DNA from: Candidatus Omnitrophota bacterium
GTDB lineage: Bacteria > Omnitrophota > Omnitrophia > Omnitrophales > Aquincolibacteriaceae
Reading direction: 5' to 3'
Length of the DNA stretch: 64,000 bases
Assembly: GCA_903884815.1 (NCBI GenBank)
Contig: CAISGE010000002.1
Span: forward strand, 45,955 to 109,954
In this document: one piece after another, positions 3,652-60,500 of the stretch
Position numbering within the stretch: position 1 is the first letter of the stretch
Layout of the letters: each line of letters opens with the position of its first letter
The notes under the pieces: model-generated
Seen by the model: only the letters and a program-made list of their open reading frames with translations
What the model was told of the DNA's origin: nothing
Database searches by the model: none
Made by a program: the position numbers and the translations under genes

Positions 3652-3683
3652 GAAAAGCGTTCTTTTATCGGCTTTTTGTTTTA

Positions 3684-6620: not shown

Positions 6621-6626
6621 CGCCTC

Positions 6627-7427: not shown

Positions 7428-7437
7428 AGGAAACAAA

Positions 7438-9084: not shown

Positions 9085-9095
9085 AATCGCACAAC

Positions 9096-9150: not shown

Positions 9151-9160
9151 TTGAACGAAT

Positions 9161-11232: not shown

Positions 11233-11248
11233 CGTTTCACGTGAAACA
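11233..11248. promoter_or_regulatory. parS: parS centromere site (cGTTTCACGTGAAACa).
   Basis: The 14 bp perfect palindrome GTTTCACGTGAAAC matches the ParB-binding parS consensus tGTTTCACGTGAAACa. Confidence 0.8.
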
Positions 11249-11374
11249 TGCCAAACGTCAAAAAAGCAGACAAAGGAGTTCTTGCGTAATAGCGCGCGAT
11301 CGCCAGCTCTCGCCATTGGAAAAAGAGAAGGTTTTCGGAAATAAAGTTCTCGATTAAACGAGCGTAAATTTTTA

Positions 11375-11402
11375 TTGCAAGCCTCTGGAATCTGTGTAAA
11401 AT
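11375..11402 (+). promoter_or_regulatory. Sigma70-like promoter for parAB (TTGCAA-N16-TAAAAT).
   Basis: The -35 TTGCAA (11375-11380) and -10 TAAAAT (11397-11402) are separated by a 16 nt spacer, about 90 nt upstream of the parA start. This is a sequence match only. Confidence 0.35.
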
Positions 11403-11465
11403 ACGGCACGGGTAGAAACACAGCCCTTTTGCATTGAGCGCACAATTGTTCGTGTTGCCACGCAT

Positions 11466-11481
11466 TGTTTCACGTGAAACA
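11466..11481. promoter_or_regulatory. parS: parS centromere site, a perfect 16-mer TGTTTCACGTGAAACA, lying between the putative promoter and the parA start.
   Basis: It matches the parS consensus exactly and lies 13 nt upstream of the parA RBS and start. Confidence 0.85.
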
Positions 11482-11493
11482 TATGGAGGCTCT

Positions 11494-12465
11494 ATGGGGA
11501 AAATATTCTCTTTCTTTAATCAAAAAGGTGGTGTTGGAAAAACAACGTCTGTCGTGAACATAGCCGCCGTTATAGCCGCTTTTGGAAAGAAGGTTCTTCT
11601 TATAGATCTAGATTCGCAAGGTAATGCAACAAGCGGACTTGGAATAGAGAAAAACGAGAATGAATCCACAGCTTATCAACTTCTTGTGGAAAACTCTGAT
11701 CCAAACGAAAGCATCAAAAAAACAGAGATTGAAAACCTTTCTATCGTCCCATCGAATGCCCATCTTTCCGGAGCGGAAATGCATTTGATAAGCCGCGATC
11801 AGAGGGAGTTCGTTCTTCGAGAGCAATTAAAAAAGATAAGCGGGAGCTATGATTTTATCCTCTTGGACTGCCCGCCATCGCTTGGACTGACAAGCATAAA
11901 TGCTTTAACATCAAGCGATTACATTATTATTCCTCTCCAGTGCGAGTATTACGCCTTGGAGGGTCTTGGCCAACTCCTGAATACATTTCAGCTTGTCAAA
12001 AAAAATCTTAGCGTGAATCTTGAGCTCGGGGGCGTGATTCTGACGATGGCGGATATCAGGACCAATCTGACGCAGCAGGTGATCGAGGAAGTCCGGAACT
12101 ATTTCAAAGAAAAAGTATTTCAGGCAGTTATTCCGAGGTCTGTGAAGCTTTCTGAGGCGCCAAGCTTTGGAAAGCCAGCCGTGATTTATGACCCTCATAA
12201 TAGAGGCTCGCAGGCTTATGTCGAGCTTGGGAAAGAATTTTTGGTGCGCTTTGGCTCCGACGAAGATCGTCAAAAGATCTCCGAGAAAGGGGCGGAAGCC
12301 TTTACAGTCAAATCTGTTACGCCCGAATCCAACGAAACGAAATCAGAAGAAACAAAAACGGTTACAAGCGAGACTACCGTTGAAACGGTAACTTCCGACA
12401 ACGGGACCGAGGCGGAGCCCCAAGCTGCAAGTGAAACCTCGTCTACCACACCCACAAATTCTTAA
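11494..12465 (+). CDS. parA: Chromosome partitioning ATPase ParA/Soj, with an unusual Ser/Thr/Glu-rich C-terminal tail of about 70 aa.
   Basis: An ATG at 11494 follows a ggagg RBS. The protein begins MGKIFSFFNQKGGVGKTT (deviant Walker A) and shows the ParA core to about residue 255. The tail reads SDEDRQKISEKGAEAFTVKSVTPESNETKSEETKTVTSETTVETVTSDNGTEAEPQAASETSSTTPTNS. The track ORF start at 11434 is upstream of the parS site and is unlikely to be real. Confidence 0.9.
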   Translation: MGKIFSFFNQKGGVGKTTSVVNIAAVIAAFGKKVLLIDLDSQGNATSGLGIEKNENESTAYQLLVENSDPNESIKKTEIENLSIVPSNAHLSGAEMHLISRDQREFVLREQLKKISGSYDFILLDCPPSLGLTSINALTSSDYIIIPLQCEYYALEGLGQLLNTFQLVKKNLSVNLELGGVILTMADIRTNLTQQVIEEVRNYFKEKVFQAVIPRSVKLSEAPSFGKPAVIYDPHNRGSQAYVELGKEFLVRFGSDEDRQKISEKGAEAFTVKSVTPESNETKSEETKTVTSETTVETVTSDNGTEAEPQAASETSSTTPTNS

Positions 12466-12500
12466 ACGCGAAACGTTCTATATAAGGAAGGAGCCTTCTC

Positions 12501-13448
12501 ATGAAAAAAGCACTCGGCAGGGGATTGAGCGCGTTGATCCCGGACAGTTACAAAGAGCAGATGGTCGCGGAGAGAAAAGAAGCTCCGGCCGCCACCGTGA
12601 CGCTTAACGCGGAGCCGGAGGTTTCCATCACGGCGCCGGTCTTTGACGCGAAAACGCAGGCTTTTCAGCTGATACCGATCGCGCAGATCGCAACGAACGC
12701 GGATCAGCCGCGCAAAAATTTCAATACCGAAACTATCGAGGAGCTCGCGAATTCGATCCGAGAGAAGGGCGTGCTCCAGCCGATCATCGTTAAAAAGAAA
12801 GAAAGCGGAGGATACGAGATCGTCTGTGGGGAGAGGCGATTTCGCGCAGCATCGCTCTGCGGTCTCACCGAAGTACCCGCGATCATTAAGGATATTGCCG
12901 CTGAAGATTTTCTGGAATGGGCGCTCATCGAAAATATTCAGCGGGAAGATCTGAATCCGATCGAAGAAGCCGAGGCTTATCAGCGGCTCGTGGAAGAGCG
13001 CAGGATCTCTCAAGAGGAGGTCGCGAAGCGCGTCGGCAAGAACCGCGTCACAGTGACAAATACCATGCGACTGCTGCGCCTGCCGCAGGAAGTGAAGCAG
13101 TCTTTGGTCGAGGGAAATCTCTCGGCGGGGCACGCCCGGGCGCTCCTGGGTCTTCTGACGCCGGAGCACCAGCGGCATATGGCGAAACGGATTGCCGAGG
13201 AGAATCTCTCGGTGCGCCAGGTCGAAGCCATTGTGAACCGGAGCAACGCGCATAAACGGAAAGCCAAGACCGCGCGGCATTTAAGCGCCGACATCGTGGA
13301 CCTTGAAACGAGGCTCACGCATTTTCTCGGGACGCAGGCGAAAATTTATCCGCGCAAGAATCAAAAAGAAGGCCGCATCGAGATCCAGTATTTTTCTCTC
13401 GACGATCTCGATCGCGTACTCCAGAAGATCGGTTTGCCGCGAGGCTGA
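12501..13448 (+). CDS. parB: Chromosome partitioning protein ParB/Spo0J.
   Basis: The protein starts MKKALGRGLSALIP (the ParB N-terminal box), carries the GERRFRAA box (CGERRFRAASLCGL), an HTH (QEEVAKRVGKNRVTVTNTMRLLRLP) and a C-terminal dimerisation region. Confidence 0.9.
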   Translation: MKKALGRGLSALIPDSYKEQMVAERKEAPAATVTLNAEPEVSITAPVFDAKTQAFQLIPIAQIATNADQPRKNFNTETIEELANSIREKGVLQPIIVKKKESGGYEIVCGERRFRAASLCGLTEVPAIIKDIAAEDFLEWALIENIQREDLNPIEEAEAYQRLVEERRISQEEVAKRVGKNRVTVTNTMRLLRLPQEVKQSLVEGNLSAGHARALLGLLTPEHQRHMAKRIAEENLSVRQVEAIVNRSNAHKRKAKTARHLSADIVDLETRLTHFLGTQAKIYPRKNQKEGRIEIQYFSLDDLDRVLQKIGLPRG

Positions 13449-13493
13449 CGCTCGAATCCGTCTGAAAGAAAAAACGTTACGAAAGAGCCGCGT

Positions 13494-14897
13494 ATGAACC
13501 CGCAGCGCGAATACCGATTCTTGGAGCAGACGCTCAGCCTGTGCCCGCAGTGTTTGATGCGCGTGGATGCGAAGATCGTTCTCAAGAAAAACTCTGTTTA
13601 TCTCTTGAAATTCTGTCCCGTCCATGGCCCCCAGGAGGAGATCCTGGAAAAAGACGGCGATTACTATCTGCAACGAATGAAATACGACAAGCCCGCCACG
13701 GTTTCCAAAACACAAACGGAGCGAACGCTCGGCTGTCCTTTTGACTGTGGGTTATGCCCCGAGCACGAACAACACACCTGTAACGGACTTATCGAAATTA
13801 CAAGCGAGTGTGATCTGAAGTGCCCGGTCTGCTATGCGGAGAGCGGCCAGGGGAGGCACCTTGCCCTGGAAAAGATCGATTCCATGCTGGATTTTTTTGT
13901 TGACTCCGAATTTGGCGGGGCCGAAATCCTTCAGATCAGCGGTGGGGAACCGACAAGACATCCCGATATTCTCGAGATCCTCCGACGGGCGAAGGAGAAG
14001 AAGATCAAATATGTGCTGCTCAACACGAACGGCCTTCGCATGGCGGAAGATGAGGCTTTTGTCAAAGAGCTGAGCCGGTTCATCGGCGGGTTCGAAGTCT
14101 ATTTCCAGTTCGATGGGTTTGATCCCAAAACCGATCAACGACTCAGGGGCAGAAAGGTTTCCGAACTTAAGCAGGCAGCGATTCAGCGCCTCGAGCAATA
14201 CGGGATCCCCGTCACGCTGGTGACGACGGTGGATGCGGGCGTGAACGACCATGAGATCGGGCGGATCCTCGAATATGGCATCCGGGCAAAAAATATACGA
14301 GGCATCAATTTTCAGCCGGTCGCCTTTTTCGGACGCCACCACGAGGCGGTCACAGAAGGGCGCGCCACTCTCTCCGGGATCCTCGAAGAGATCGAGAAGC
14401 AAAGCAAGGGGATGCTTCTTAAAAAAGATTTTTTTCCGTTGCCCTGCGATGTCGACCGCGTTGCGATCACCTATCTCTACAAGACAAAAAAAGGTTTCGT
14501 TCCACTGACGCGAAATTTTAAAGCCGAAAAACACCTGCCCATGATCCGGAACACGTTTCGCTTCGATCCAGACGATTTTTTAAAGGATCTGGCCAAAAAC
14601 ATTTTCTCCACAAGCTGTTGTGATTATCTGGGATTTTTTTCCAAACTTCGGAAACTTATCCCCCAAAATTATTTTCTAAAAACAGAGCAGGAAAAAGTCG
14701 CCTACGTGAGCGAAAACACTTTCAGGGTCAGCGTCACTTCGTTTCTCGACGCCTATAATTTCGACATGAAGTCGATGAAGAAAGAATGCGTGCACATCAT
14801 CACTCCGGACCTGAAAAAGATCCCGTTCTCGGCGTATAACATTCTCTATCGTAACCGCAAAACTGAAGCCGAGACGGTTCCGGAGAAAAAACAATGA
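13494..14897 (+). CDS. Radical SAM enzyme (467 aa) with an N-terminal Cys4 ribbon and an extra CX3CX2C cluster. It may belong to the Tes/GDGT-MAS-like lipid C-C synthase family.
   Basis: The radical-SAM signature is CDLKCPVCY (CX3CX2C) followed by the GGEP glycine motif (ISGGEPTRHPDI). A second CX3CX2C (CPFDCGLCPEHEQHTC) lies upstream of it. An N-terminal Cys ribbon CPQC...(17)...CPVHG resembles rubredoxin. There is no SPASM or twitch tail. The family-level call is an inference. Confidence 0.8.
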   Translation: MNPQREYRFLEQTLSLCPQCLMRVDAKIVLKKNSVYLLKFCPVHGPQEEILEKDGDYYLQRMKYDKPATVSKTQTERTLGCPFDCGLCPEHEQHTCNGLIEITSECDLKCPVCYAESGQGRHLALEKIDSMLDFFVDSEFGGAEILQISGGEPTRHPDILEILRRAKEKKIKYVLLNTNGLRMAEDEAFVKELSRFIGGFEVYFQFDGFDPKTDQRLRGRKVSELKQAAIQRLEQYGIPVTLVTTVDAGVNDHEIGRILEYGIRAKNIRGINFQPVAFFGRHHEAVTEGRATLSGILEEIEKQSKGMLLKKDFFPLPCDVDRVAITYLYKTKKGFVPLTRNFKAEKHLPMIRNTFRFDPDDFLKDLAKNIFSTSCCDYLGFFSKLRKLIPQNYFLKTEQEKVAYVSENTFRVSVTSFLDAYNFDMKSMKKECVHIITPDLKKIPFSAYNILYRNRKTEAETVPEKKQ

Positions 14898-31714: not shown

Positions 31715-33070
31715 ATGGAAAAGATGAAAACGGATGAGTTGATCGCGAAAGACCGGAAACACATCTGGCACCCGTTTACGCAGATGAAGGATTGGCAGGT
31801 CGATGACTTTCCGGTGATCGAGCGTGGCCAAGGGTGTTATTTGGTCGATACCGAGGGCCGCAGGTATCTCGACGGCGTGTCGTCCCTTTGGTGCAATGTG
31901 TTCGGGCACCGGGTCCCTGAGATCGATAAGGCGATCAAAAAGCAGCTCGGAAAGATCGCGCACACGACATTTCTTGGCCTCACGCATCCCACGTCGATCG
32001 AACTCGCAGGAAAACTGATCCGAGTCGCACCGAAAGGCCTCTCTCGTGTGTTTTATTCAGACTCCGGTTCTGAGGCGATGGAGATCGCGCTCAAGATGGC
32101 TTATCAGTACTGGCAGCAGCGCGGCGAGACGAAAAAGAAAAAGTTCGCAAAACTGACGAACGCTTACCACGGCGACACGATTGGATCGGTAAGTCTCGGA
32201 GGCATCGACCTTTTCCATCAGATCTATAAGCCGCTTCTCTTCGAGACGCTCGCGGTGCCGTCACCTTATCGCTATCGTTGGTCTTCCGGTGACGATCCGG
32301 AGCGAGTCAAAAAAGAATCACTCGAGGCGATGGAGAAAGCGTTGCGTGAGAATGCCGGCGAGCTTGCGGCGTTCGTGATGGAACCCCTCATGCAGGGCGC
32401 CGCCGGGATGATCGATCAGCCGAAGGGATATATTTCCCGTGCCAGAGAGCTGGCACGAAAGTATAATACGCTCCTAATTTTTGATGAAGTAGCGACCGGA
32501 TTCGGGCGGACGGGCAAGATGTTTGCCTCGGAGCATGAAGGTGTGACGCCGGACATTATGGCGGTGGCCAAAGGCATTACGGGAGGTTATCTTCCTCTTG
32601 CCGCAACCCTTGCGACAGAAGAGGTTTACGAGGCGTTTCTGGGGAAATACGAGGATTTCAAGGCTTTCTACCACGGCCACACGTACACGGCGAATCCGCT
32701 GGCGTGCGCGGCTGCGATTGCAACGCTTGATCTTTTTAAGAAGGACCGGACGATCGAAAAGCTTCAGCCGAAGATCCGGATGATGCAAAATCGCCTAAAA
32801 GATTTTTATAAACTCAAGGCGGTCGGTGATATCCGGCAGGTCGGCACCATGATTGGGATCGAGTTGGTCCTGAACAAAGCGACGAAAGAAAGTTTTAGAC
32901 CGCAAGAAAAGATCGGCGTTCGCGTGATCGAGAGCGCTCGTAAAAAAGGCGCGATTCTGCGGCCCTTGGGTCCCGTGATCGTTCTGATGCCGCCGCTTGC
33001 GATGACGGCGCGCGAGTTGGACAAGCTGTTCGATATTACGTATTCATCTATTGAGGAAACAACAGAATGA
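31715..33070 (+). CDS. bioA: Adenosylmethionine-8-amino-7-oxononanoate aminotransferase.
   Basis: The class III aminotransferase has the BioA N-terminus IWHPFTQMKDW and a PLP Lys region (AVAKGITGGYLPLAA). It is 451 aa. Confidence 0.9.
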   Translation: MEKMKTDELIAKDRKHIWHPFTQMKDWQVDDFPVIERGQGCYLVDTEGRRYLDGVSSLWCNVFGHRVPEIDKAIKKQLGKIAHTTFLGLTHPTSIELAGKLIRVAPKGLSRVFYSDSGSEAMEIALKMAYQYWQQRGETKKKKFAKLTNAYHGDTIGSVSLGGIDLFHQIYKPLLFETLAVPSPYRYRWSSGDDPERVKKESLEAMEKALRENAGELAAFVMEPLMQGAAGMIDQPKGYISRARELARKYNTLLIFDEVATGFGRTGKMFASEHEGVTPDIMAVAKGITGGYLPLAATLATEEVYEAFLGKYEDFKAFYHGHTYTANPLACAAAIATLDLFKKDRTIEKLQPKIRMMQNRLKDFYKLKAVGDIRQVGTMIGIELVLNKATKESFRPQEKIGVRVIESARKKGAILRPLGPVIVLMPPLAMTARELDKLFDITYSSIEETTE

Positions 33071-33834
33071 AAGCTGGAATATTCATCACAGGAACGGACA
33101 CGGACGCGGGAAAAACCGTGGTCTCCGCGGGGTTGGCGCTGGTTCTCCGGGATCGCGGAATGAAAGTCGGCGTGATGAAGCCTGTCGCGACCGGCTGCTA
33201 CGGTGCGGATGAGCGGCTGATCTCGCAGGACGCGGCCTTTCTAATGGAAGCCGCGCAAAACGAATACCCGCCGCTGACGAGCCCTTCGCGTTACCGCAAC
33301 CCTCTTTCGCCCAATGTTGCGGCGATGCTCGAGAAAAGAGAAGTCGATGTTCCCGCCATTCTTAAAAGCTACCAGCAACTTCAAAAACATTATGATTTTA
33401 TGATCGTCGAGGGGATCGGCGGCCTGATGGTCCCTCTGAAAAAAGATTATTACGTGGCAAATTTGATCCGCGACATGGGGCTCCCTATTGTCATCGTGAC
33501 TTACGCGGGCCTCGGCGCGATCAATCATACGTTACTCACAGTCGATGCGGCCATGATCCGGGGAATCGAGGTCCGGGGGATCATTTTCAACCGTGTCTCC
33601 GTGACGAATTATTCTCTGGCCGAGCTTACCAATCCGAAAGTTATACACGATCTTTCCGGCGTTCCCGTTCTCGGCAGCCTTCCCGATATCCAGGGTCTTA
33701 ATCTAGAAAACTGCCAGTTTGGAAAACTCAAGGACATCTTTCGGGAACGCATCCAGATCGATAAGATAGTCGGTCCCAACACCTATCAACCGGAGCAAAG
33801 CGGAGGTTGGGGTCGTCCAAGCCACCCTTCATGA
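33067..33834 (+). CDS. bioD: Dethiobiotin synthetase.
   Basis: It begins with a P-loop (IFITGTDTDAGKTVVSAGLA) and has the BioD fold. Its start overlaps the bioA stop (ATGA). Confidence 0.85.
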   Translation: MKAGIFITGTDTDAGKTVVSAGLALVLRDRGMKVGVMKPVATGCYGADERLISQDAAFLMEAAQNEYPPLTSPSRYRNPLSPNVAAMLEKREVDVPAILKSYQQLQKHYDFMIVEGIGGLMVPLKKDYYVANLIRDMGLPIVIVTYAGLGAINHTLLTVDAAMIRGIEVRGIIFNRVSVTNYSLAELTNPKVIHDLSGVPVLGSLPDIQGLNLENCQFGKLKDIFRERIQIDKIVGPNTYQPEQSGGWGRPSHPS

Positions 33835-33904: not shown

Positions 33905-35197
33905 TTGTCTTTAAAGCTTCCACTCGGTATTCGTCTCGAGAGAAAAAAAGATGCCAGCCTTCTGAACTGGAACCTCAAGCGTCCTTACCCGCCTGAAAAG
34001 ATCCGCGTGCCCGTGCCTTTCAATGCAGAGCCCTGCGTTCGTATCGGAGACAAGGTGGTGACGGGACAAAAGATCGCGGAAGCGAATGGGACGGAAGGCG
34101 TCAGCGTTCACGCAGGCATGTGTGGGACTGTGGAAAAGGTCGCGGAATATCCGGATCCGACGGGGAAGCAAAGCTTGATGATCGAGATCCGTAGATACGG
34201 CGAGCCCAAGCCCAGTGCGCCTTGGGATCTTCGGAAAGATTGGGAGCAGATCCCCGCGGAGCAACTTGCCGGGATATTCCGGAATGCCGGACTGGTGACG
34301 ACGGGTCCGCGAAGCGAGCCGGTGCATGTGAAGCTCGCCCGTCACGCCGCAGCGCGAACGCTCGTGATCAATATCTGCGCACCCGAACCTTATATCACCT
34401 GCGAGCTGGTGCTCGCAATGTCCCATCCCGTGGAGATCCTGAGAGGCGCCGAACTTTTACGAAAAGCCTGCCATGCCGAGAAAGTTGTGTTTGCGTTGGA
34501 AGATTCGAACCGGGAAACGGCCGAGCTCATCAAGAGCAAGATCTACTTTCTTAAGTGGACACACGCGGAAGTGCGGACGGTCCCCGCCATTTACCCCCAG
34601 GGACTTGAAAACACACTGCTCCAGGCCTGGTTTTCCGGAGAAGAAGACCAGGCTTTGGTTTTTCCCGCGTCCACCGCCTTCGCGGTCTACGAAGCGGTTG
34701 CGCTCGGGAAGCCTTTTTATGAGAGGGTGGTGACGGTGGGCGGCGAGTGCGTGGTCGAGCCGCGCAGTCTCTGGCTCCCTCTGGGTATCTCCTTTCACGA
34801 CGCGATCCGCACGTGCAAAGGCGTGATGCGCGAACCCCGCAAGGTTTTGATGGGGGGTCCCCTGGCAGGGACTGCGCAAGCCAGCCAGGAAGTGCCTTTG
34901 ATGGCTTCCACGAATGCCGTTCTGGCGCTTCCTCAGGAGATCGTCACGGAAGCGGAGCGGTCTGCCGAACCCTGTATCCGCTGCAATCTTTGTGTGGACC
35001 ATTGCCCGGCCGCCCTTTCGCCCGCGATGATCACTCTGGCGGCGGAAGCGAAAGAGTTCGCCATTGCCCGTGAATGGGATGCTGCGGAGTGTTTTGAATG
35101 CGGTATCTGCGCGTATGTGTGCCCCTCGAAGCGGCCGATGCTTGAACTGATACGCGCCGCGAATCACCCGGCGGAAAAGAAGGTGGCTCATGTCTGA
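33905..35197 (+). CDS. RnfC-like subunit that retains 2x[4Fe-4S] motifs but lacks the NADH/FMN-binding glycine motifs.
   Basis: It has an N-terminal RnfC barrel-sandwich region (PFNAEPCVRIGDKVVTGQKIAEANGTEGVSVHAGMCGTVEKV) and C-terminal ferredoxin motifs (CIRCNLCVDHCP, CFECGICAYVCP). Where canonical RnfC has GGAGFP and INGAECEP, this protein has LVTTGPRSEP and INICAPEPY. Confidence 0.55.
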   Translation: MSLKLPLGIRLERKKDASLLNWNLKRPYPPEKIRVPVPFNAEPCVRIGDKVVTGQKIAEANGTEGVSVHAGMCGTVEKVAEYPDPTGKQSLMIEIRRYGEPKPSAPWDLRKDWEQIPAEQLAGIFRNAGLVTTGPRSEPVHVKLARHAAARTLVINICAPEPYITCELVLAMSHPVEILRGAELLRKACHAEKVVFALEDSNRETAELIKSKIYFLKWTHAEVRTVPAIYPQGLENTLLQAWFSGEEDQALVFPASTAFAVYEAVALGKPFYERVVTVGGECVVEPRSLWLPLGISFHDAIRTCKGVMREPRKVLMGGPLAGTAQASQEVPLMASTNAVLALPQEIVTEAERSAEPCIRCNLCVDHCPAALSPAMITLAAEAKEFAIAREWDAAECFECGICAYVCPSKRPMLELIRAANHPAEKKVAHV

Positions 35198-36044
35198 AGA
35201 GAAGCCTTCCTTTGCGCAAAGTCTTCCGCCGCATATTCGCTCCACGGATTCTCTCACGAAGCGGTCCTGGGGACGAACCCTCGCGCTGCTTCCGCTTTTG
35301 CTCGCAGCCTGCTTGACTGGACACGCTCAGATCTTACGCGTGCTTTTGCTCTGTCTGGTGAGCGCGGTCGCGTTCGAATTCCTGGCGAAGAAACTTTTAA
35401 GAAAAAAAGAGGAGCTGCGGAACGGCGAAACGGTGCTGGTCGCGGTCCTTTTCTCGCTCCTGATGCCCTCACGTTGTCCCTCGGAGCTGGTGATCCTGGG
35501 CGTTTTTTTAGCGGTCGTCATGGGTAAAGAACTTTTCGGCGGAACTGGGGGGTATCCTTTGCCACCGGCCTTGATGGCCCGCGCGATACTCCAACTCAGT
35601 TTTCCGAAAGTGATGGCTGAGCCGATGCTTTTGGCGGGGGATGTCAGTCCCTGGTTGGTCGTGGCGATAGGGCTTGGCGGGATCCTTCTCCTGCGACAAA
35701 AAAAAAGTTATTGGGAGACTCCCGTTCTTTTTACGGCTGTTTGTTTTATCTGCGGTGATCTCTGGGGCGGAGCTGAGGTGCCCACTGCTTTTTTGAGCGG
35801 CGTTCTCTTTACGGCTTTTTTTCTCCTCGCGGATCCCGTGACACTGCCGCTGACGCGAAAAGGGAGCGCATTGTTTGTCTTGGGAGCCGCGATATTAAGC
35901 TCGACCCTTGATCCCCATGGGTTTTCGATCGGCGCGGTTGTCTTCGCCGTTCTTTGGATGAGCCTTTTGACGCCCTGGCTGGATGTTTGGCTCAAGCCGG
36001 TTCCGTTTATATTCAAACGTTTGATCAAGGCGACTTACCCGTGA
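35190..36044 (+). CDS. RnfD/NqrB-like membrane subunit lacking the flavinylation loop.
   Basis: The motifs MGKELFGGTGGYPLPPALMARAIL and LLADPVTLPLT align with RnfD FGG..NPFNPA and L.DPVT. The periplasmic loop that carries the D-x-x-s-G-A-T FMN-attachment motif is absent. The protein is 284 aa against about 350 for canonical RnfD. Confidence 0.5.
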   Translation: MSEEKPSFAQSLPPHIRSTDSLTKRSWGRTLALLPLLLAACLTGHAQILRVLLLCLVSAVAFEFLAKKLLRKKEELRNGETVLVAVLFSLLMPSRCPSELVILGVFLAVVMGKELFGGTGGYPLPPALMARAILQLSFPKVMAEPMLLAGDVSPWLVVAIGLGGILLLRQKKSYWETPVLFTAVCFICGDLWGGAEVPTAFLSGVLFTAFFLLADPVTLPLTRKGSALFVLGAAILSSTLDPHGFSIGAVVFAVLWMSLLTPWLDVWLKPVPFIFKRLIKATYP

Positions 36045-36173
36045 TGAACATCAGAAAGATTCTTTCTACTTTGGGACAGTATCTGTTCCTCGCGCTTTTT
36101 CTCGGGTTGCTGGTCGCGATTCTTTACGTGGCCAAGATTTTGAGAGGATGAAGATGATGACTTTGGGGCAAAA

Positions 36174-36701
36174 ATGAAGTTGCCGGAAAACCTTTTCTCG
36201 CGGCTGCTATTGGCTTACCTTCCGTTCATGGTTTATCCGTACGGTCTTTTTAAAACGGGTGTCGCGGCACTCTGGGTCGCGATGTTCCTCTGGATCACCG
36301 TTTCTTTTTTCTGGCTGACCCGAAGTTTTTTTCCGGGGCGCTCGCTCAAGCACGCTTTTTTTCTTTGGCTAGTCGTATGGGCACAGGCCGTCTGGACGCT
36401 CACCAAACTCCCCCCGCTCTGGATCTTAAGTGTTTTCTTTTTGATGCCGGTCTCGTTTCTCGAAAGCGCGGTGAGGCCCGAACGCGTCAGCGTCTTTTCC
36501 TGGAAAGTGCCGCGGTATTTTTTTGAGCGAGCACTGGCCGGTGTCGGGTTTGTGATCTTTGTGGTGGCGATGGCCCTGGTCCGGGAGGCCTGTGAAAAAG
36601 GGCTCGGGATCAAGCTCTTCGAGCAGCCTGCGGGACTTTTGTTTGTAATCGCAGCCATCGCTTTTTTGTGGAAAAACCAACCTTTCCGAAGGCGGGCCTA
36701 A
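36174..36701 (+). CDS. Polytopic membrane protein, possibly a degenerate RnfE/RnfA-family subunit.
   Basis: The 175 aa protein has about 5 transmembrane segments. Its C-terminus (FEQPAGLLFVIAAIAFLW) resembles RnfA/E C-termini, and it lacks the LGLCP motif. Support is weak. Confidence 0.3.
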   Translation: MKLPENLFSRLLLAYLPFMVYPYGLFKTGVAALWVAMFLWITVSFFWLTRSFFPGRSLKHAFFLWLVVWAQAVWTLTKLPPLWILSVFFLMPVSFLESAVRPERVSVFSWKVPRYFFERALAGVGFVIFVVAMALVREACEKGLGIKLFEQPAGLLFVIAAIAFLWKNQPFRRRA

Positions 36702-37208
36702 ATGTATTTTCTGATCATTCCCTTGGGTTTTGTGTTGGCGTTGCGGGGGGGGCGTTCCGTGCCCTTGCAGCGGCCGGTCGAAGGTCTCACTCGGGTTTGG
36801 CGCGAAGCGGCGGATCTCTTTCTGACCACGAGTCTGATCCTGACCCTTGGGGTGGTGGTGCTCGCTTGGGAGCCATGTCGGGGAGTCGCGGGGGAATACA
36901 CGATCCTGGGTCTTGGAGTGGTGGCCTACGCGCTCGCACGCTATCAGAAAAAATCGGATGTTTTTTTCCTTGTCTCGATGCTGATCGCTTTCATGATCCA
37001 TTCCAGGCCAGTCGATCTGCTGTCCGGACTTTCTCTAGCGTGGGCCGTGAGCGTCGGGATCGCGATCTTTCAGACCTGCTTTCTCGGGCTACGCTACCGG
37101 CTTCTTTTTTCGAATGTTCCTGCGGCCGTAAAAGGATGGCCAATGTTTTGCCTCTTGGCGGGGTTCCTGTCGGTGGTCCTGTGGAGCGTCGGAAGACTGA
37201 TTTTCTAA
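36702..37208 (+). CDS. Polytopic membrane protein, possibly a degenerate RnfA/RnfE-family subunit.
   Basis: The 168 aa protein has a C-terminus (SNVPAAVKGWPMFCLLAGFLSVV) resembling RnfA [20 protein letters not shown]. It starts 1 nt after the previous stop. Support is weak. Confidence 0.3.
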   Translation: MYFLIIPLGFVLALRGGRSVPLQRPVEGLTRVWREAADLFLTTSLILTLGVVVLAWEPCRGVAGEYTILGLGVVAYALARYQKKSDVFFLVSMLIAFMIHSRPVDLLSGLSLAWAVSVGIAIFQTCFLGLRYRLLFSNVPAAVKGWPMFCLLAGFLSVVLWSVGRLIF

Positions 37209-37283: not shown

Positions 37284-38366
37284 ATGGGTATCGAAGAGAT
37301 CTTGTTAGGCGCTATCGTGCAGGAAGCCTCGGACATTCATCTGACCGTGGGCCGGCCAGTGACCTATCGTTTGATCGGGGACCTTGTTTCGGTCGGGGAG
37401 AAAATGCTGACGCCGATGGACACGGAGGCCTTTGCCAAGGAGATCACGACAGAGGTTCAGCGAAAGAGGGTTGAAGAGGTCGGCGGCATAGACTTCGGTT
37501 TTTCATTCAAGGAAAAGGCCCGATTTCGCGTCTCTTGTTTTAAACAACAAGGGCATTATTCCCTGGTGTTGCGCCTTCTGCCCTCGAGGTTTTTCAGTTT
37601 CGAGGATATCGGACTGCCGCCCCAACTGGTGGAGACGATCAGCCTGCCCCGGGGTCTGGTGCTTGTGACGGGACCCACGGGATCCGGTAAAACCTCCACG
37701 CTTGCCACCATGCTCAATTTTATCAATGAGAACTTTCCGAGGCATATTATTACAGCCGAAGATCCGATCGAATTTGTTCACAAGCATAAAAAATCCATCG
37801 TGACCCAGCGCGAGGTGGGCGAGGATGTCCCGAGCTTTTCCGAGGCGATCGTGAAATCCCTGCGTCAGGATCCCGATGTGATCTTGATCGGAGAAATGCG
37901 CGACCTGGCGACCATGGAATCAGCCATCCGCGCGGCGGAAACCGGACATCTTGTTTTTTCCACACTTCACACGACGGGCGCCGCCCGGACCGTGGATCGC
38001 ATTATCGATGTTTTTCCCTCGCACCAGCAGGCCCAGGTTCGCGTCCAGCTTTCCGCTACCCTTGTGGCCGTAATCTCCCAGGTGCTTGTGCCGCGCCTCG
38101 ACGGAAAAGGACGTGTGGCGGCTTTTGAGATCATGTTCGCGACGCCGGCGGTGCGCAATCTTATTCGCGAAGGGAAGACCTATCAGATTCTCTCCGAGCT
38201 TCAAACGGGGGCGCGTTACGGCATGATCATGCTGGATGATAATCTGAAGCAGCTTTATGCCCAGGGGACCATCGGCTATGAGGCGGCACTTGAAGTGGCC
38301 GTGGACCCCCGTGAGCTTGCCCTGCAGCTTTCTAAGATCCAACCTCCTGGCAAAGGCAGACGATAA
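37284..38366 (+). CDS. pilT: Type IV pilus retraction ATPase PilT (twitching motility protein).
   Basis: It has a Walker A motif (GPTGSGKTSTLATMLNFIN), Asp and His boxes (ITAEDPIEFVH, VLIGEMRD) and AIRAAETGHLVFSTLHT. It is 360 aa. Confidence 0.85.
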   Translation: MGIEEILLGAIVQEASDIHLTVGRPVTYRLIGDLVSVGEKMLTPMDTEAFAKEITTEVQRKRVEEVGGIDFGFSFKEKARFRVSCFKQQGHYSLVLRLLPSRFFSFEDIGLPPQLVETISLPRGLVLVTGPTGSGKTSTLATMLNFINENFPRHIITAEDPIEFVHKHKKSIVTQREVGEDVPSFSEAIVKSLRQDPDVILIGEMRDLATMESAIRAAETGHLVFSTLHTTGAARTVDRIIDVFPSHQQAQVRVQLSATLVAVISQVLVPRLDGKGRVAAFEIMFATPAVRNLIREGKTYQILSELQTGARYGMIMLDDNLKQLYAQGTIGYEAALEVAVDPRELALQLSKIQPPGKGRR

Positions 38367-38400: not shown

Positions 38401-38440
38401 AAAAACCCCCGCGCTCCTTAAAGAAGCACGGGGGTTTTTT
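38401..38440. terminator. Bidirectional rho-independent terminator between pilT and the convergent gene on the opposite strand.
   Basis: The sequence aaaaacccccgcg...cacgggggtttttt forms a GC stem (cccccg/cggggg) flanked by an A-tract and a T-tract. Confidence 0.7.
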
Positions 38441-53946: not shown

Positions 53947-54552
53947 ATTCTGTACTGAATTAAAACCTCGAAGTCATACCCTCCCCGTTCAATGCGTTTG
54001 TAGCTCCCTCCAGCCCAAGGGCATTCCAACTCGTTTCCCGTGGCGAAGAATGGCAGTTGACTTTTATTGCGCAGAATAATACAATTTGCACAATAGTATC
54101 AATATCAACGCTATAAGGTAATACAGAATGAGCAAAAAGAATAAGTACATTCCCGGACCTGAAAGTGAAAAAATCTCCCACCTCCAATCAACCATTTTCA
54201 GAGCAAAGAATCCGCGGATTGCCGCTCATGGTCTATGGTACTTAGCTTATGGGTCTGTAAGACTTTCTTATATCTTAATAGTCTCTATGGGACATTAATT
54301 TATGTTTTCATATATTAATACAAGCCAATTACTTTTCATAGCTCTCTAGAAATCATAAATGCCATAAATTCTATAACATACTATTTCATATTATATAAAC
54401 GCTATGTATTGCTATGCGCTTAATGTTAGGCATTGCTATATCAAACTAGATTGTCAGCCATTGCGCATGTCTTGCGCGTCAATGAGGGTTTAACCAGGAA
54501 GAGCAGAATTTATCCCTGAAATGAAATTCTAAGATCATCGGGAGACAGAAGC
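53947..54552 (+). promoter_or_regulatory. A 600 bp AT-rich leader upstream of the giant adhesin gene. It contains a strong sigma70-like promoter (TTGACT-N17-TACAAT, 54057-54085) and a possible 56 aa small ORF (54128-54298).
   Basis: GC falls to about 30% over 54230-54480, against about 58% in the flanking genes. The hexamers are TTGACT at 54057-54062 and TACAAT at 54080-54085. Repeated attgctat motifs are present. The small ORF reads MSKKNKYIPGPESEKISHLQSTIFRAKNPRIAAHGLWYLAYGSVRLSYILIVSMGH* and has a weak RBS. Confidence 0.4.
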
Positions 54553-57500
54553 ATGAAAAACACAATCGTAAATCGCGGGACTGCAGCGGCGCTTTGTTTT
54601 CTGATGTGTTTTATTTCGATACCGGTGATGCCGGCGCATGCGATGGTTACACAAAAACCTTTGGTTTTTGGTACCTCCTCGAAAGGATCCCAGCAGTCTG
54701 GGGTGCCCGCGGATAAGGTCGATACGACGGCGAAACAAGAGGTGCCGGTCGAGCCGAATGCCGGCTTCATGAACCCTTCGGCAATAAGAGCCGCGACAGT
54801 AAACACGCCGTCGACAACGATGACACCTTCTATCGACACTCAGAAGCCTTCGGTGCCGACGGGACTTGCGGTCTCGAATGTGACGGCGACGGGCGTGAAG
54901 CTTAGCTGGAATGCCGTGACGGATAATGCCGGAGGTTCCGGTGTGACGGGTTACGATATCTACAAGGATTCGGCCCTTTTCGCGACGGTGGCCGGGAATG
55001 TTACGACCTACACGGTGACGGGGCTTACGGAGGGTACTGCTTATACCTTCACGATCAAGGCCAAGGACGCGGCGAATAATGTCTCGGATGCAAGCGATCC
55101 GCTTTCAGTCACGCCGTCGTCGGTCAATCAGCCGCCGGTGGCGACAGCGCCCACCGTGAATCCTTTTAATGAGGATACGCCGCAAGCCATCACGCTCGGC
55201 GGCACGGACCCGGATCATAATCCGCTCACGTATGTCATCGTCACCAGACCGGCGCACGGGTCGCTGGTGCATGATCCCGCATTCCCGAACGATCCCTCCA
55301 AGTTCCTTTACACGCCCGTTGCGGACTACAACGGGACTGATTCGTTCACGTATAAAGTGAACGACGGCACCGCCACATATACGGCGACCGACACAACCGC
55401 AACCTCCGCCGCCGCGACGGTTTCACTGACCATCAACGCGGTTAACGACGCGCCGGTGGCGACGACGACGCGGGTGGTGAATATCCTCCAAAATACGGCC
55501 CGCACCGTCACTCTCGGGGCATTGAACGTCGATAAGGACACGCTTTCCTACACGATCCTGACGCGGCCGGCGAAGGGGACATTGTCGTGCACGGGAGCGG
55601 CGTGCACTTATACGCCAGCGGCGAATGACTTTGGGACGTATTCTTTCTCGTACAAGGTAAGTGACGGGACGCTGGATTCACAGCCAGCGATCGTGACCTT
55701 TGAGGTCGTCAAGCCCGCCGCGGCGCCGGTCATGATGGCGGCCCAAACGGGGACGACGGGGGAAAGCCTTTCGTTCACGGTCCCGAATGCCGCGGCATAC
55801 ACGTTTGACGCGTTTGACGGGGAATCGCTTCCGGCGGGCGCGCATTACGACGCCGCAAACGGTCAATTCACCTGGACGCCGACCTACAACCAGGCGGGAG
55901 TTCACGTGTTGCAGTTCGTCAAGGACCAGCAGACTTATCAGACGCTCCTGGCCGTCAGCTACGTTCCTCCGATCGGGATCTCCAATCCGGAGTTTGGGAT
56001 CATGGAGACTTACCGGATGTATGATGACATCGCGAAGCGGAATACGGCACTCACCTACTATCGGAACGACGAAGGCGGCTTTTACACGCATTATATCGAC
56101 AACGGAGCCGGGTGCTCCGACTCCGGCAACTCCGCCGGGACCGCGGCCAGTCCGCGGTGCACCATCCCGTCCGAACTTCCCGCCGGCGCTGTCATCGAGC
56201 TTCATGGCGGACCGTATACGAATATCACAAGTTGGCAAAACGCCGTAAACGGAGCGGGAACGCAAGATAAACCCATCTTTATTCGAGGGAATGGCGTGAG
56301 AATTGATGCGAGACTGAGTATCTACACGAGGCCCACGGAGGAGAACAGTTATGTGATCGCGGAAGGACTCAATGCGTATGCTGTCAACATAGGCGCACCG
56401 AGCAACCATGTCGTACTGAGAAACTCAGATGTTCACGGGGATGCGAGCGGCGGCGGTGTTTCTTTGCAAAGGCCGACGGAAAGCACCAAGGCCAATCCCA
56501 ACAATGCTATATCCAATGTCACCCTCTACAACAACACGATCCACGATAACGGAATCTGGCAACCGGAACTTGCCGAGGGAGATCGGGATATTCACGGACT
56601 GGTCATCGGTTGGTTTAGTCTCGTAGACCATGTCTGGGTGCTGGATAACGATATCTATCACAACGAAGGCGATTCGATTCAGGTCAATGCGGGGCCGCAC
56701 GTGACGCCGTCCAACGTCAACAACATCTACATCGGACGCAACGAAATGCATGACGATAAACAGAGCGCTTTGGGTGTCAAGAGCGCGAAGGATGTTATTA
56801 TTTCTGAAAATGACATGTATGGAATCCGTGTAAGCAGTTCGGCGTCGGGCGATTGTACGGGTAATTCGGATGACGGACCGGAATCTGTCTGGTGGCTTTA
56901 CAACAAAATTCATGATGGAGCCTTAGGCTTCAAGTTCTCCGGCAGCGCTGTCGGAACCTACGGAATGATCGGGAACCTGATCTACGATATCCATGGCGCC
57001 GGGGGACCGCTCTCGGGCGATTATTCTCAATCCGGCCAAGCGATGACGGATTGGCATGGCAATATCATCAAGTACATCGTGAACAATACCATCTATGATA
57101 CGGATTACGGTTATTCGGTGTGGCAGGGCGGACGTCCCAACAATGAGTCGTTTACCCTTGTCAATAATATCGGCGTCACGACACTGACCGGTTATGCAGC
57201 CTCCAGCATACTTCATTCCGATGCCATCAACCTCTCGGACAATATCACGGGAAGCAGCGCCCTTTTCGCCAATGTTCCCGCGTTCTCGACGCGTCTCGAT
57301 GATTTTCAATTTACGGCCACGGCCGGTCAAATGCGTTCGGCGGAGGGCGGCACGAAGACCATGCTGACGGTCCCAGGCGCGGATTTTACCGCGTTGGGCG
57401 TCAAAGCGGGAGACCGTCTCGACCTGGGGGCGGCGAGGACAGATCAAAACGGGAAAAAGATTATGAATCCCGCCGTCTCTGTTTATTCATCCACGTGGAT

Positions 57501-60500
57501 GTACATCGAAAGCGTGAACGGAGATACGATCACCTTAAAAGATAATGTCTGGCTTTGGGATTCGAACGCGGTGAAGTTCTCGATCTATTATTATCCCTAT
57601 CCGAAGGTGAACACGAACGAACTGTATCTCGACGATGTTTCGAAGTTCAGCGTGGGAGACGTTATCGAATACAACCATGACGGCGTTGCCAGGAGAGTGG
57701 TCAGCGTCGATACCAATGTCATTTCGGATTCCATCGGACCCAAAGGCCGGATCGTGTTGGACAGTCCTGTGCCTAAGCTCATCTCGCAGGCTTCGATCAC
57801 CAACTGGGGGCCGAAGACTGACAACAATCTTGTGTGGGACCTGAGTCTGAAGGCCGGCTCCGCGGCCATCGGAAAAGCCGAGTCCCTTCAGACGATCACG
57901 GCCATGGATCACTCGGGGAATCCGGTCCTGGATGGGGCAGGCAAGCCCGTCTCGCTTGCCGCCTATTTTAATACATTATACGGGATACAGCTCCCGGCGA
58001 ACCCGGACCTCGGGGGGTCTGACTACACGGACGCGGGCGTGCCGGCTGTTTCTTATTATGTCGGGAATGATTACACAGCCGACTCGACCCATTTCACAAC
58101 CGTACAGGCTGCTCAGAGCCGGATCGCGGCGGATATCGCGGCGCATGCGGGTGATCCTTCCTGGATACAGCCTGCCTACACGGTGCTGATCAAAGCGGGC
58201 GTGTATCAAAACGTGGCGGGAAACTGCTCAGGCGCCACTTGTAATCTTGTCAATGTGACAGTTTCAGGGACCGCGAGCGCGCCGATCACTTTTAAACCCT
58301 TGGGAGACGGGCCCGTTGTTTTCCGCGGATTTGGATTTGAAGATCGTGATCTGAACGGTGACGGAATGGCGGATGGCCCGGCCGATCCTAACAAACGCGA
58401 AACGCTCATGCGGATCAGCGGCAATTACATCCATGTCGAAGGTCTTGAGTTCACGAACTCCCAGCAGGGGGGACTCGTCATCGAGGGGAGCTTCAACCGA
58501 ATCGAGAACGTCAGCTCCCATGATAATTGGACCATCGGGATCAGCATCGGAGATGCCGGCAACCGCCGCGTTGAGGGGAATGTCGTCACCGGCTGTGAAG
58601 CCTACAACAACCGTCATTACGTGGGCATTGCGATCAACTTCGCGCAGCAGACGAATTGGAATCCGGACTGGCTTGTGACGAAAAACATCATTGAGAACTC
58701 ACTTTCTTACAGGAACGGTTACCTGCCCGACGGAACCAAAGTGCTGCCTATCGGCGGTGATCCGCAAGGGGGAGGGAATTCGGACGGGATCATGGCCACC
58801 AAGTTCTGCGCTTCAGGGAAGACTCAGAACGCGTGCCCGGATAATATTTTCCGCGGGAATATCGTCTGGTCGAACGCCGATGACGGTATTGACGTGAGCT
58901 TCTCCGACTCGCTGATCGAGAACAACATCTCTTTTGATAATGGGCCGTCGGGCAGCATGGGATTTAAAGTGTTCTTCGAAAATGTAAAGAACAGCTTTGT
59001 CGGGAACATCGCCTACGCGAACGATGGAAATGGTTTTGACTTGCGCAGCACGACAACCGGCATCTTTCTCAATAATCTGGCTTTGAATAACGGCGCGTGG
59101 GGATTTTCGGGGGGTAACTTCGAAACCAATCACAATAACATGGCGTACGGGAGCGTTCTTAACGCGGACATGTCGATCCCGGCCGCCTGCGCGAATTCGA
59201 CTTGCTCGAATAACTGGAACGGCAAGGGCAGCGGGCCCTTGAGCGGCGACCCCAAGTTGGCGAACACGACGCTCTTCAAAGGCTCGAACGGACAGATCGT
59301 GTTCAGTCTGCCGGCGGGAACGATAGACCAAAAAGTGGCCTGGCTCAAGGGTCAGTTTGCGACCGCTTTCAGTTTGCAATCTGGAAGTGGGGCGATCAAC
59401 GCCGGGGTCGCGGCCTCCTATACGGACCCGATCACGGGGGAGACGCTCTCCAGAACGGTACTAGGAAGCGCGCCTGAAATAGGGGCTTATGAATACACGG
59501 ACGGTACGACGCCTCCGCCCGACCAGACGGTTCCCGTGATCAGCGCCGTTCTTTCAAGCAGTGTGACGGTGAACGGGGCGGTGATCAGCTGGACGACCAA
59601 TGAGGCTAGTGATTCCCAGTTGCAGTATCGCGTGCAAGGGACCACGACCTGGTCGAACACGACCCTCAACACGTCACTTGTGACGAGCCACTCCGTGACG
59701 CTCAGTGGGCTGAACGCACGCACGGTGTATGAATATCAGGTGAAGTCCAAGGACCAAGCCGGGAATCTTGCCACTCAGGCAACGATTTCCAATTTCACGA
59801 CGCTGACTCCGCCGCCAACCGGCGCGATCCCGTTGAGTGGCGGACGGACCGCGGATTATGTGTCGGCCGCGGATTCCTCCATTCTGAACAAACTTACGGT
59901 CTATGATGCACAAGGCGTCGTGCAGGCGGTGAGTTATATCCCGAGAGCTTATGTGGATCTGGACCACGATGAGGTTACAGTGGTAAGCGGTCAGGTGAGG
60001 ATCACGCGGCACTACAAGAACCGGACGACGGTGGATGTGTTCGATCAATTCGGGGTTCTTTTGACGCTCGATTCCCAGGGGAATATCCAGAGCGGCAAGA
60101 TCGTGAACTCTGTTTCCGCGACGATCTCCGGGGTTCAGCAGACGCGTTACTCAACGGTCGCGACGGTGAATTATCAGAATCAGCTTCCCGTCTCGGTTGT
60201 GAAAGCCGCAACGGACAGCGTCACGGTCGCCTATGCCCCCGGGACTTCGAACGTGACAGGTTACACTTATAAGAACGCTGCCGGAGCGATCCTGGCGGAG
60301 GCCGTGCCCGTGGCCGGCGGTCTCTTCCGGGTGAATGCTCCGGCGCTTGGCATTGTTCTGGAGCAGGTGAAGATCCAAAGTGCTGCGGACGCGTACCGGT
60401 TGATGGCGAAACTGGCGAGCACCATGAAGCGCCTGGCGGATTACAAAACGGAGCTTGTGCAGGCCTACGGGTTTCTTTACGGAACCGCGACCGCAACTGA

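Follow-up and report, generated by a model that had tools for sequence, protein, structure and literature searches.

The Rnf complex passes electrons from RnfB over the intramembrane [2Fe-2S] cluster of RnfA/E, the flavin mononucleotide (FMN) of RnfG and the FMN and riboflavin of RnfD, and then over the 4Fe-4S clusters and the FMN of RnfC to nicotinamide adenine dinucleotide (NAD+) (PMC12174285, PMC11889175). In a model of the Acetobacterium woodii complex, Na+ binding is coupled to reduction of the adjacent [2Fe-2S] cluster, and a 2025 review describes the membrane-subunit cofactors as strictly conserved across RNF and NQR (PMC12174285). The canonical gene order C-D-G-E-A is also found in operons of other Omnitrophota (PMC8542988). 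Here we describe five tightly coupled genes on the plus strand (33905-37208) of a stretch of 64,000 nucleotides (nt) from a Candidatus Omnitrophota bacterium, the whole of which we call the window. Their products are homologous to the subunits of solved Rnf complexes (7zc6, 9eri, 8ahx) and are encoded in the same order, with RnfG represented by its membrane anchor only. As judged by sequence comparison, the module is almost certainly derived from Rnf and stripped of its cofactors, and it appears to be an Omnitrophota-specific descendant of an rnfCDGEA(B) operon that kept the protein architecture and shed the electron-transfer chain. From the published reviews one would not expect a selected and widespread variant in which the protein shell persists without the [2Fe-2S] cluster, the two covalent FMNs and most of the riboflavin ligands. 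The genes are as follows.

C', 33905 to 35197, plus strand: RnfC-derived cytoplasmic subunit, 430 residues, TTG start
D', 35190 to 36044, plus strand: RnfD-derived membrane subunit, 284 residues
mu, 36044 to 36151, plus strand: single-helix micro-protein of 35 residues, MNIRKILSTLGQYLFLALFLGLLVAILYVAKILRG, in the RnfG position
M1 (E'), 36174 to 36701, plus strand: probably RnfE-derived, 175 residues, six predicted helices
M2 (A'), 36702 to 37208, plus strand: RnfA-derived by profile and model, 168 residues, six predicted helices

The gene set was drawn from the open reading frame (ORF) listing of the window and from independent gene calls on public contigs encoding identical proteins (L015; related loci are referred to by such numbers). 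The start of D' overlaps the stop of C' by 8 nt, the ATG of mu shares one base with the stop of D' (TGATG), and M2 begins on the base right after the M1 stop. An initial annotation made from the letters of the window had counted four genes, having missed mu. Pipelines name C' and D' RnfC and RnfD, leaving mu, M1 and M2 hypothetical.

NqrA is a cofactor-less RnfC homologue and a conserved integral part of Na+-NQR, with a role that is thought to be structural (PMC12174285). It shows that an RnfC-type subunit can lose its redox cofactors and still be kept, but NqrA also lost the Fe-S clusters, both of which C' retains, and the NQR membrane core keeps every cofactor and pumps, whereas that of the module is stripped. 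Other features of Na+-NQR (NqrF with flavin adenine dinucleotide and [2Fe-2S], NqrC, the N-terminal quinone-site helices of NqrB) were not found in the window, and D' scored 45-69 bits with NqrB models, far below their cut-offs of 350-792. The NQR/RNF-like systems of Meheust et al. (2021) have RnfD/NqrB fused to the NAD-binding domain of NqrF (PF00175) and occur in flavinylation gene clusters; their ApbE-dependent flavinylation and an FMN-binding partner were proposed to carry electrons outward (PMC8238504). These too are partial Rnf/Nqr derivatives, mainly of uncultivated lineages; the module differs in that none of its flavinylation sites is left and D' carries PF03116 without an NqrF domain, and neither ApbE nor FMN_bind genes lie nearby. 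The proline-reductase-associated PrdC is likewise an RnfC-family protein outside the canonical Rnf complex, but it is not encoded with RnfD/E/A-type membrane subunits, and C' reached 99.8 bits with TIGR04481 against a cut-off of 490. A full-text literature search found no description of a cofactor-less Rnf paralogue, and the supplements of Seymour et al. (2023) give KEGG orthology lists for ancestral nodes only, without per-genome tables of Rnf subunits.

Cofactor sites of the five subunits

As canonical reference we used rnf operons from a metagenome scan with the C' alignment (loci L033-L101), comprising 60 RnfC, 55 RnfD, 37 RnfA and 37 RnfE sequences, in which the residues missing from the module are 97-100% invariant; the likeness of the module to Rnf is well above what chance would give. 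With TIGR01945, the NCBIfam model for rnfC, C' scores 279 bits (cut-off 246, E 4.6e-83), and it keeps the N-terminal barrel-sandwich, Nuo51-like, SLBB and two-cluster ferredoxin domains of RnfC (RnfC_N, Complex1_51K, SLBB, Fer4). Residue-level alignments to three solved RnfC chains (7zc6_C, 9eri_C, 8ahx_C) and to Escherichia coli RsxC agreed with the initial annotation, which had read both CxxCxxCxxxCP motifs as intact (residues 357-368, nt 34973-35008, and residues 396-407, nt 35090-35125) and the glycine motifs as replaced. The glycine loop of the FMN/NADH site, canonically G(I/V)xGxGGAxFPTxVKL, reads GLVTTGPRSEPVHVKL in C' (residues 129-144, nt 34289-34336), and INICAPEPY (residues 155-163, with NICAPEPY at nt 34370-34393) stands for canonical N(G/A)xECEPY. 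GGAxF is present in 60/60 canonical RnfC sequences; the window C' carries G-P-R-S-E there, and across the C' family (24 distinct members spanning deep lineages) these positions are variable, the former loop being deleted in L011 and L020. The ECEP cysteine, found in all 60 canonical sequences, occurs in none of the 24 family members, while the eight 4Fe-4S cysteines are invariant in both sets (24/24 and 60/60).

The loss of the FMN/NADH site is accompanied by three or four conserved cysteines that are new with respect to Rnf:

Cys44 codon, 34034 to 34036, plus strand: cysteine in 23/24 of the C' family, 0/60 canonical RnfC
Cys158 codon, 34376 to 34378, plus strand: 23/24 of the C' family, 2/60 canonical RnfC
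Cys282 codon, 34748 to 34750, plus strand: 24/24 of the C' family, 0/60 canonical RnfC
Cys304 codon, 34814 to 34816, plus strand: 21/24 of the C' family, 27/60 canonical RnfC

The family also shares a new near-invariant motif, ELxKSKIxFxKW, whose copy in the window is ELIKSKIYFLKW (nt 34523-34558), and C' is the best-conserved and most constrained subunit of the module. These changes look like remodelling, more than mere decay, and the four cysteines may form a new metal, cluster, thiol or disulfide site where FMN bound.

In D', PF03116 is the sole Pfam domain (E 3e-50), and the rnfD model gives 131 bits, below its cut-off of 207. The match is split in two, residues 6-144 aligning with 5-143 of 7zc6_D and residues 152-272 with 183-305, so that residues 144-182 of Clostridium tetanomorphum RnfD are skipped. 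This segment contains Thr153, the covalent FMN site (PMC9588780), indicating that the flavinylation linker is absent from D', as had been claimed from the sequence at the outset. The deletion junction lies within nt 35598-35681; the motifs that anchor the linker are 23 residues apart in D' and more than 50 in canonical RnfD, of which 55/55 carry the flavinylated Thr, and no periplasmic Dxx(s/t)gA(T/S) motif is present. Neither an intact GGAGFP in C' nor an SGAT in D', either of which would have meant a misreading, was seen in the alignments. The motifs of the ten-helix core are kept (PHIR, FGG, xDP, PW.D), including the N-terminal PPHIRS, FGG, and LLADPVT with its Asp (nt 35823-35843). In the A. 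woodii structure, the N-terminal stretch of RnfD that includes PHIR contacts RnfC. The riboflavin ligands of NqrB, N200, N203 and D346, have been called absolutely conserved (PMC9293633). At these positions canonical RnfD has N-N in 55/55 and D in 53/55 sequences (the other two being alignment gaps), whereas D' has Y-P-D, with Tyr and Pro at the Asn positions in FGGTGGYPLPPAL (nt 35535-35573), and two of the three ligands are thus replaced. Residues conserved in at least 93% of D' sequences are limited to Pro, Gly, Phe, Leu, Trp and one C-terminal Asp, and deep D' relatives have Glu or other residues in place of the LLADPVT Asp.

M1 and M2 had been described as polytopic proteins with RnfA/E-like C-termini but no LGLCP motif, and profile-profile and structure comparisons (hhalign, Foldseek) connected M2 to RnfA and M1 to RnfE. 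A profile of 25 M2 homologues matched only RnfA and NqrE chains in the PDB, and against a 37-sequence RnfA profile hhalign gave a probability of 96.5% (E 7.8e-10), with nothing against RnfE. The AlphaFold model of M2 (six helices; predicted local distance difference test score 74.5) has the RnfA chains 8ahx_A and 9eri_A as top PDB matches, RnfE/NqrD and RnfA/NqrE being the nearest solved folds for M1 and M2, respectively. The RnfA likeness is strong in the C-terminal third, where VPAAVKGWPMFCLLAGF (nt 37116-37166) matches VPxxxxGxPIxLxTAGL of RnfA, and by these profiles and models we identify M2 as RnfA-derived. For M1 the likeness to RnfE is weak and spread over the whole length. Rnf-Nqr (PF02508) is the only recurring Pfam family (7/26 members, best E 5.8e-5); with deep relatives added, M1 aligned to a 37-sequence RnfE profile with E 5.9e-4 locally over 154 columns and 6.4e-5 globally, with nothing against RnfA; and the top six PDB matches of its six-helix model are all NqrD or RnfE. 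Compared as single sequences by hhalign, M1 and E. coli RsxE or RsxA showed no significant match, the M1 profile found nothing among PDB sequences, and in deeper relatives the M1 and M2 proteins went unrecognised by Pfam. Each line for M1 is weak singly, but four lines are concordant and point to an RnfE origin. M1 LLAYLPFMV (nt 36207-36233) aligns on RnfE LLGLCPLLA with Leu in place of the cysteine, while the deep relative L011 still has LLAVCPALF. Of the four intramembrane [2Fe-2S] cysteines, each present in 36-37/37 canonical RnfA and RnfE, none is kept in M1/M2; the M1 family has no cysteine column at or above 50%, and the cysteines of M2 are off the ligand positions and not invariant. Moreover, neither family has an invariant polar or charged residue.

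The micro-protein mu is conserved in all close relatives, is called as a gene of 35-42 residues in distant ones, and was predicted independently by gene callers on other contigs. Aligned to the N-terminal membrane anchor of the RnfG-position protein of L019, it scored 46, compared with 21-23 +/- 4.5 for shuffled sequences, none of 2000 reaching that score. The L019 protein itself (200 residues) matches the canonical RnfG profile weakly, and a Pfam scan of it found neither FMN_bind nor any other domain. The comparison identifies mu, at the level of sequence, as homologous to the RnfG membrane anchor and as the occupant of the RnfG slot; the periplasmic FMN domain with its flavinylated Thr is lost. 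L019 (197-1739, on a contig of 1.9 kb) also encodes the closest loop-bearing relative of D', an RnfD of 312 residues with the linker GIAASTPL, directly followed by the RnfG-position protein, and may represent an intermediate stage of cofactor loss.

Homologues of RsxA/B/E/G, NqrC/D/E/F and ApbE were not found in the window by tblastn, nor were RsxA/B/E/G-type genes in the fetched flanks (~6-10 kb) of any related locus; rnfB, with its polyferredoxin input subunit, rnfG and apbE are absent from the window and from the related loci recovered. The initial statement that RnfB and RnfG are missing is thus borne out for the window, except that mu holds the RnfG slot. Elsewhere, an L033 cluster from a different organism (3679-6751) consists of rnfC-rnfD-rnfB with canonical RnfC motifs and SAPT in the RnfD linker, lacks rnfG, rnfE and rnfA, and is followed by a 442-residue ORF and mnmA. 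Another Omnitrophota metagenome-assembled genome carries a full nqrABCDEF-apbE operon (L009, 6484-13665) in which NqrD has ITNT where the cluster-ligand TNC is expected.

Taken together, ligands or attachment sites are missing for the RnfC FMN, the RnfD covalent FMN, the RnfG FMN and the intramembrane [2Fe-2S] cluster, and the only invariant cofactor ligands left are the eight cysteines of the two RnfC 4Fe-4S clusters. Along the canonical path the module has no ligands for RnfB, [2Fe-2S], RnfG FMN, RnfD FMN and RnfC FMN, and one of three for riboflavin, which would exclude the canonical reaction. The homologues of RnfC/D/G/E/A are encoded together in operon order, but seven cofactor and subunit features that define Rnf were looked for and not found, and we therefore do not file the module as an Rnf complex. 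Very probably it is not a canonical Rnf pump, in keeping with the early doubt that it is a functional ferredoxin:NAD+ oxidoreductase.

Relatives, synteny and selection

Word-indexed searches returned more than 110 homologues of D', 115 of M1 and 112 of M2; those of M1 and M2 are nearly all unnamed or hypothetical, and every named one is from Omnitrophota. Searched exhaustively with HMMER, 1.84 billion representatives yielded 3084 matches to the RnfD family. Among the closest 141 representatives at 50% identity, the linker is at most 30 residues in 70, intermediate in 29 and long in 42. Loop-less relatives thus form 70 or more clusters at 50% identity, the named ones being all from Omnitrophota. 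The strict flavinylation motif is present in 0/70 loop-less relatives, and the N-N-D riboflavin triad in 34/42 long-linker versus 12/70 loop-less ones, indicating that loss of the FMN loop goes with erosion of the riboflavin site. The forms can be arranged as a graded series, which documents step-wise cofactor loss and a possible gain of a cysteine site:

canonical Rnf, then L019 (linker kept, degenerate G), then L011 (short linker, relic CP), then the loop-less form of the window

Relics of cofactor motifs include LAVCP in L011 M1, a short D..SGTP linker in L011 D' and the N-N-D triad of the 12 loop-less D' relatives. An ancestral, pre-Rnf transporter was considered and rejected, since such relics survive and canonical rnfBCDGEA exists in the phylum.

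The D' proteins of L001-L008 are 63-66% identical to that of the window. Where contigs are long enough, related loci share the order bioA-bioD(-mnmA)-C'(-dsbA-like)-D'(-mu)-M1-M2-pilT. In none of the related loci recovered is the operon broken, and the full-length loci examined contain no frameshifts or stops. Metagenome-assembled genomes with the operon include JBAZER01, PLLJ01, JAZDFE01, JBDRCT01, GCA_016196555.1, GCA_964373045.1 and GCA_964410905.1. Same-strand bioA/bioD lie upstream in every related locus that extends far enough, mnmA is often directly upstream of C' in deeper lineages, and pilT follows in all loci extending that far except L011. The flanking genes in the window, given as context, are:

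bioA, 31715 to 33070, plus strand: upstream of C'
bioD, 33067 to 33834, plus strand: directly upstream of C'
pilT, 37284 to 38366, plus strand: 360 residues, downstream of M2

In five deep loci a gene for a membrane-anchored DsbA-like protein with one or two domains, each with CPFC, is inserted between C' and D':

L011, 8699 to 9964: DsbA-like gene
L018, 5766 to 7034: DsbA-like gene
L021, 1812 to 2561: DsbA-like gene
L030, 8029 to 9096: DsbA-like gene
L031, 2720 to 4006: DsbA-like gene

The six genes mnmA-C'-dsbA-D'-M1-M2 of L021 abut or overlap, with a 4-nt overlap between the C' stop and the DsbA-like start and a further overlap between the DsbA-like end and the start of D'. No DsbA-like gene was found in the window or in the closer relatives examined for it. 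Going by gene context, this protein is a putative partner of the complex, and it is the only clue to one.

Pairwise ratios of non-synonymous to synonymous substitution (dN/dS; Nei-Gojobori, among relatives) were 0.09-0.24 for C', 0.13-0.18 for D', 0.09-0.16 for M1 (one low-divergence pair 0.56) and 0.16-0.32 for M2. For bioA, bioD, pilT, polA and coaE they were 0.03-0.09 in pairs with unsaturated dS and 0.16-0.18 in two more divergent pairs. Comparison of L020 with the window gave 72-79% identity for BioA, BioD and PilT, and 48% for C', 30% for D', 45% for M1 and 34% for M2. Evolution is fastest in the membrane subunits, which share 25-45% identity in comparisons that give 77-81% for PilT; canonical RnfA, in contrast, is 47-54% identical between E. 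coli and distant unrelated bacteria. The module genes are under purifying selection, relaxed relative to their neighbours, and the data indicate that they function, under much weaker constraint than a working Rnf core. With dN/dS of 0.09-0.32 and an intact operon in all related loci recovered, the module is very probably not a product of decay.

Possible function of the module

The initial annotation had proposed either a diverged ion-translocating core or a repurposed scaffold, and the evidence leans towards the scaffold: the membrane subunits, in which no polar or charged residue is invariant, evolve fast and lack the [2Fe-2S] ligands, while C' is best conserved and has new conserved cysteines. 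D', mu, E' and A' would still assemble as a membrane scaffold with C' docked on D', which is consistent with the conserved PHIR stretch in the RnfC-contacting part of RnfD. Electrons would not be passed to the periplasm and back, and ferredoxin:NAD+ oxidoreduction would not be coupled to ion pumping. The working part would be C', a membrane-tethered two-cluster iron-sulfur protein whose former flavin pocket is rebuilt around Cys44, Cys158, Cys282 and Cys304. It would most likely serve one-electron transfer or redox-sensing at the membrane, anchored by the Rnf-derived subunits, which would also be the platform on which a partner docks; the membrane-anchored DsbA-like protein would probably be among the partners in deeper lineages. 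With identity and mechanism weighed together, we consider this account reasonably probable; that an iron-sulfur module on an inert Rnf-derived scaffold is the actual function is a tentative proposal that could well be wrong. Possible, though doubtful, is a full conversion, in which the flavin of C' was swapped for a cysteine-ligated centre and the cofactor-free core acquired a non-Rnf function with a periplasmic thioredoxin-fold partner; this could be envelope thiol-redox coupling or redox-gated transport. If true, the converted complex would be the first natural Rnf/Nqr core working without the "strictly conserved" cofactors, and "Rnf" in part of the phylum's metabolic reconstructions would not be an energy-conserving pump. 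Likewise, predictions of ferredoxin:NAD+ coupling and of an ion-motive force would be wrong for any lineage whose only Rnf-type operon is this one. The module also offers a natural control for the argument on whether ions pass through RnfD/NqrB or RnfA/E, as a scaffold without redox chemistry.

Several points weigh against the tethered iron-sulfur protein. Loss of a motif is no proof of loss of the cofactor, and flavins may bind non-covalently in the rebuilt pocket; D' retains the riboflavin Asp and a conserved Glu of the second transmembrane helix (Glu63), and some of the 12 loop-less relatives with full N-N-D may bind riboflavin near the C' clusters. The window C' departs from its family at the ExE motif, with ICAPEP where the family has GCEPEP. 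An anchor of 23 helices seems extravagant for a mere tether, and the fast evolution of the membrane subunits also fits slow decay of a dispensable complex. Other Omnitrophota carry rnfBCDGEA (PMC8542988 supplement), and a canonical Rnf, or separate rnfB and rnfG, may be encoded elsewhere in the genome, outside the 64 kb. The identity of the module and its proposed function are read here from comparison of sequences.

Among the alternatives, it is unlikely that D' and E'/A' carry an ion or solute with C' as a redox-sensing cytoplasmic regulator. Such a transporter or channel would make use of the folds themselves, as Amt and urea transporters are structural relatives of RnfD/NqrB, and RnfA/E is an inverted-topology heterodimer with a rocker switch between inward and outward states (PMC12174285, PMC11889175); D' retains FGG, Glu63 and the LLADPVT Asp, and all four membrane genes are intact and under purifying selection. 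However, no polar or charged residue is invariant in M1 or M2, the residues most conserved in D' are those of the short list given above, the LLADPVT Asp is not kept in deep relatives, the cluster that gates the Na+ site of RnfA/E in the A. woodii model has no cysteine ligands here, and the membrane subunits diverge much faster than PilT. Rather improbable is an envelope thiol-disulfide system linking C' to a periplasmic DsbA-like oxidoreductase in the position of RnfG, the gene having been moved or lost in the lineage of the window. The five CPFC-encoding genes between C' and D' and the gained Cys44, Cys158 and Cys282 agree with such a system, as does the lack of room for mu between D' and M1 in L018 and L021, which have the DsbA-like gene; L011, however, holds both, and neither the window nor the closer relatives examined have the gene. 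Furthermore, D', M1 and M2 offer no conserved cysteines or cofactor sites for transmembrane electrons, and adjacency is weak evidence within a conserved housekeeping synteny block.

There is little probability that the module is a non-functional relic, an Rnf remnant decaying under weak selection or after a recent loss of function. Erosion has reached every catalytic site, the loop of C' that once belonged to the FMN site is variable or deleted, and dN/dS is two to four times that of the neighbours with far larger sequence divergence, but the ratios stay well under 1, the full-length loci are uninterrupted, and homologues of D', M1 and M2 each exceed 100 with D' in at least 70 clusters. The start/stop overlaps indicate translational coupling, and the eight Fe-S cysteines are invariant, as are the gained ones. 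A still-working Rnf with non-covalent flavins, and with RnfB and RnfG encoded elsewhere in the genome, we regard as very improbable. C' does pass the rnfC threshold, pipelines call C' and D' Rnf subunits, a conserved Rnf complex is ascribed to Omnitrophota in published reconstructions (PMC10066038), and for this genome the absence data cover the 64-kb window. No distant subunit, however, can supply the four absent [2Fe-2S] cysteines, whose mutation in A. woodii was used to remove a key cofactor when the electron pathway was validated (PMC11889175). The RnfG slot is a helix-only peptide, D' lacks the FMN linker and two riboflavin ligands, C' lacks the glycine loop and the ECEP cysteine, and rnfB, rnfG and apbE are missing from the related loci as well. 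Hardly credible is a membrane platform for the adjacent PilT ATPase, although pilT is the next gene downstream in nearly all loci, among them L020 with its different genes beyond pilT, and the window has no other pilus genes. A Fic gene takes the pilT position in L011, the region is housekeeping synteny, and PilT is 77-86% identical across lineages whose modules are 25-50% identical, which argues against co-evolution.

Wider surroundings of the module

The genes downstream of M2 are pilT, polA, coaE and rho. PilT matches TIGR01420 with 446 bits. The initial annotation had stressed that the module sits next to an orphan pilT; the gene is there and no other pilus gene was found in the window, but its place belongs to conserved housekeeping synteny and does not speak for a functional tie. 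It is common for pilT to be encoded away from the remaining pilus genes. We saw no promoter-like site in the interval from bioD to C', and bioA/bioD may be co-transcribed with the module, with bioA through pilT as one transcription unit; a functional tie with bioA/bioD would not follow from adjacency. A biotin link, in which bioB needs a low-potential electron donor, was considered for the upstream bioA-bioD and not adopted, the adjacency being within a conserved housekeeping block only. Just after pilT (38401-38439) a strong 18-bp GC-rich hairpin between A and T runs resembles a bidirectional terminator.

Elsewhere in the window, the chromosomal origin region (~4000-13500) contains dnaN and dnaA (minus strand), followed by rnpA, yidC, mnmG, parA and parB; dnaA is ~28 kb from the module. 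At ~54400-64000 (plus strand) a giant gene begins, whose product exceeds 4193 residues on a matching contig and contains fn3, cadherin-like, Big_9 and Ig domains. It has a 3.1-kb internal repeat (59592-59813 matching 62685-62912, 86-87% identity). A search of the window for small repeated elements found none. A segment of ~28 codons resembling RSQYPSIGAERRLGPSKLPFWKRKKKFG recurs in frame within or at the ends of several genes of related genomes: inside M1 in L001 (~3000-3090), with matching stretches in L002, L003 and L008, at M1 tails in L005 and L006, and as inserts or extensions of C' in L001, L003, L005, L006 and L008. The C-terminal tail of bioD in the window (33790-33834) resembles it as well, and the segment looks like a small mobile insert tolerated in coding regions.

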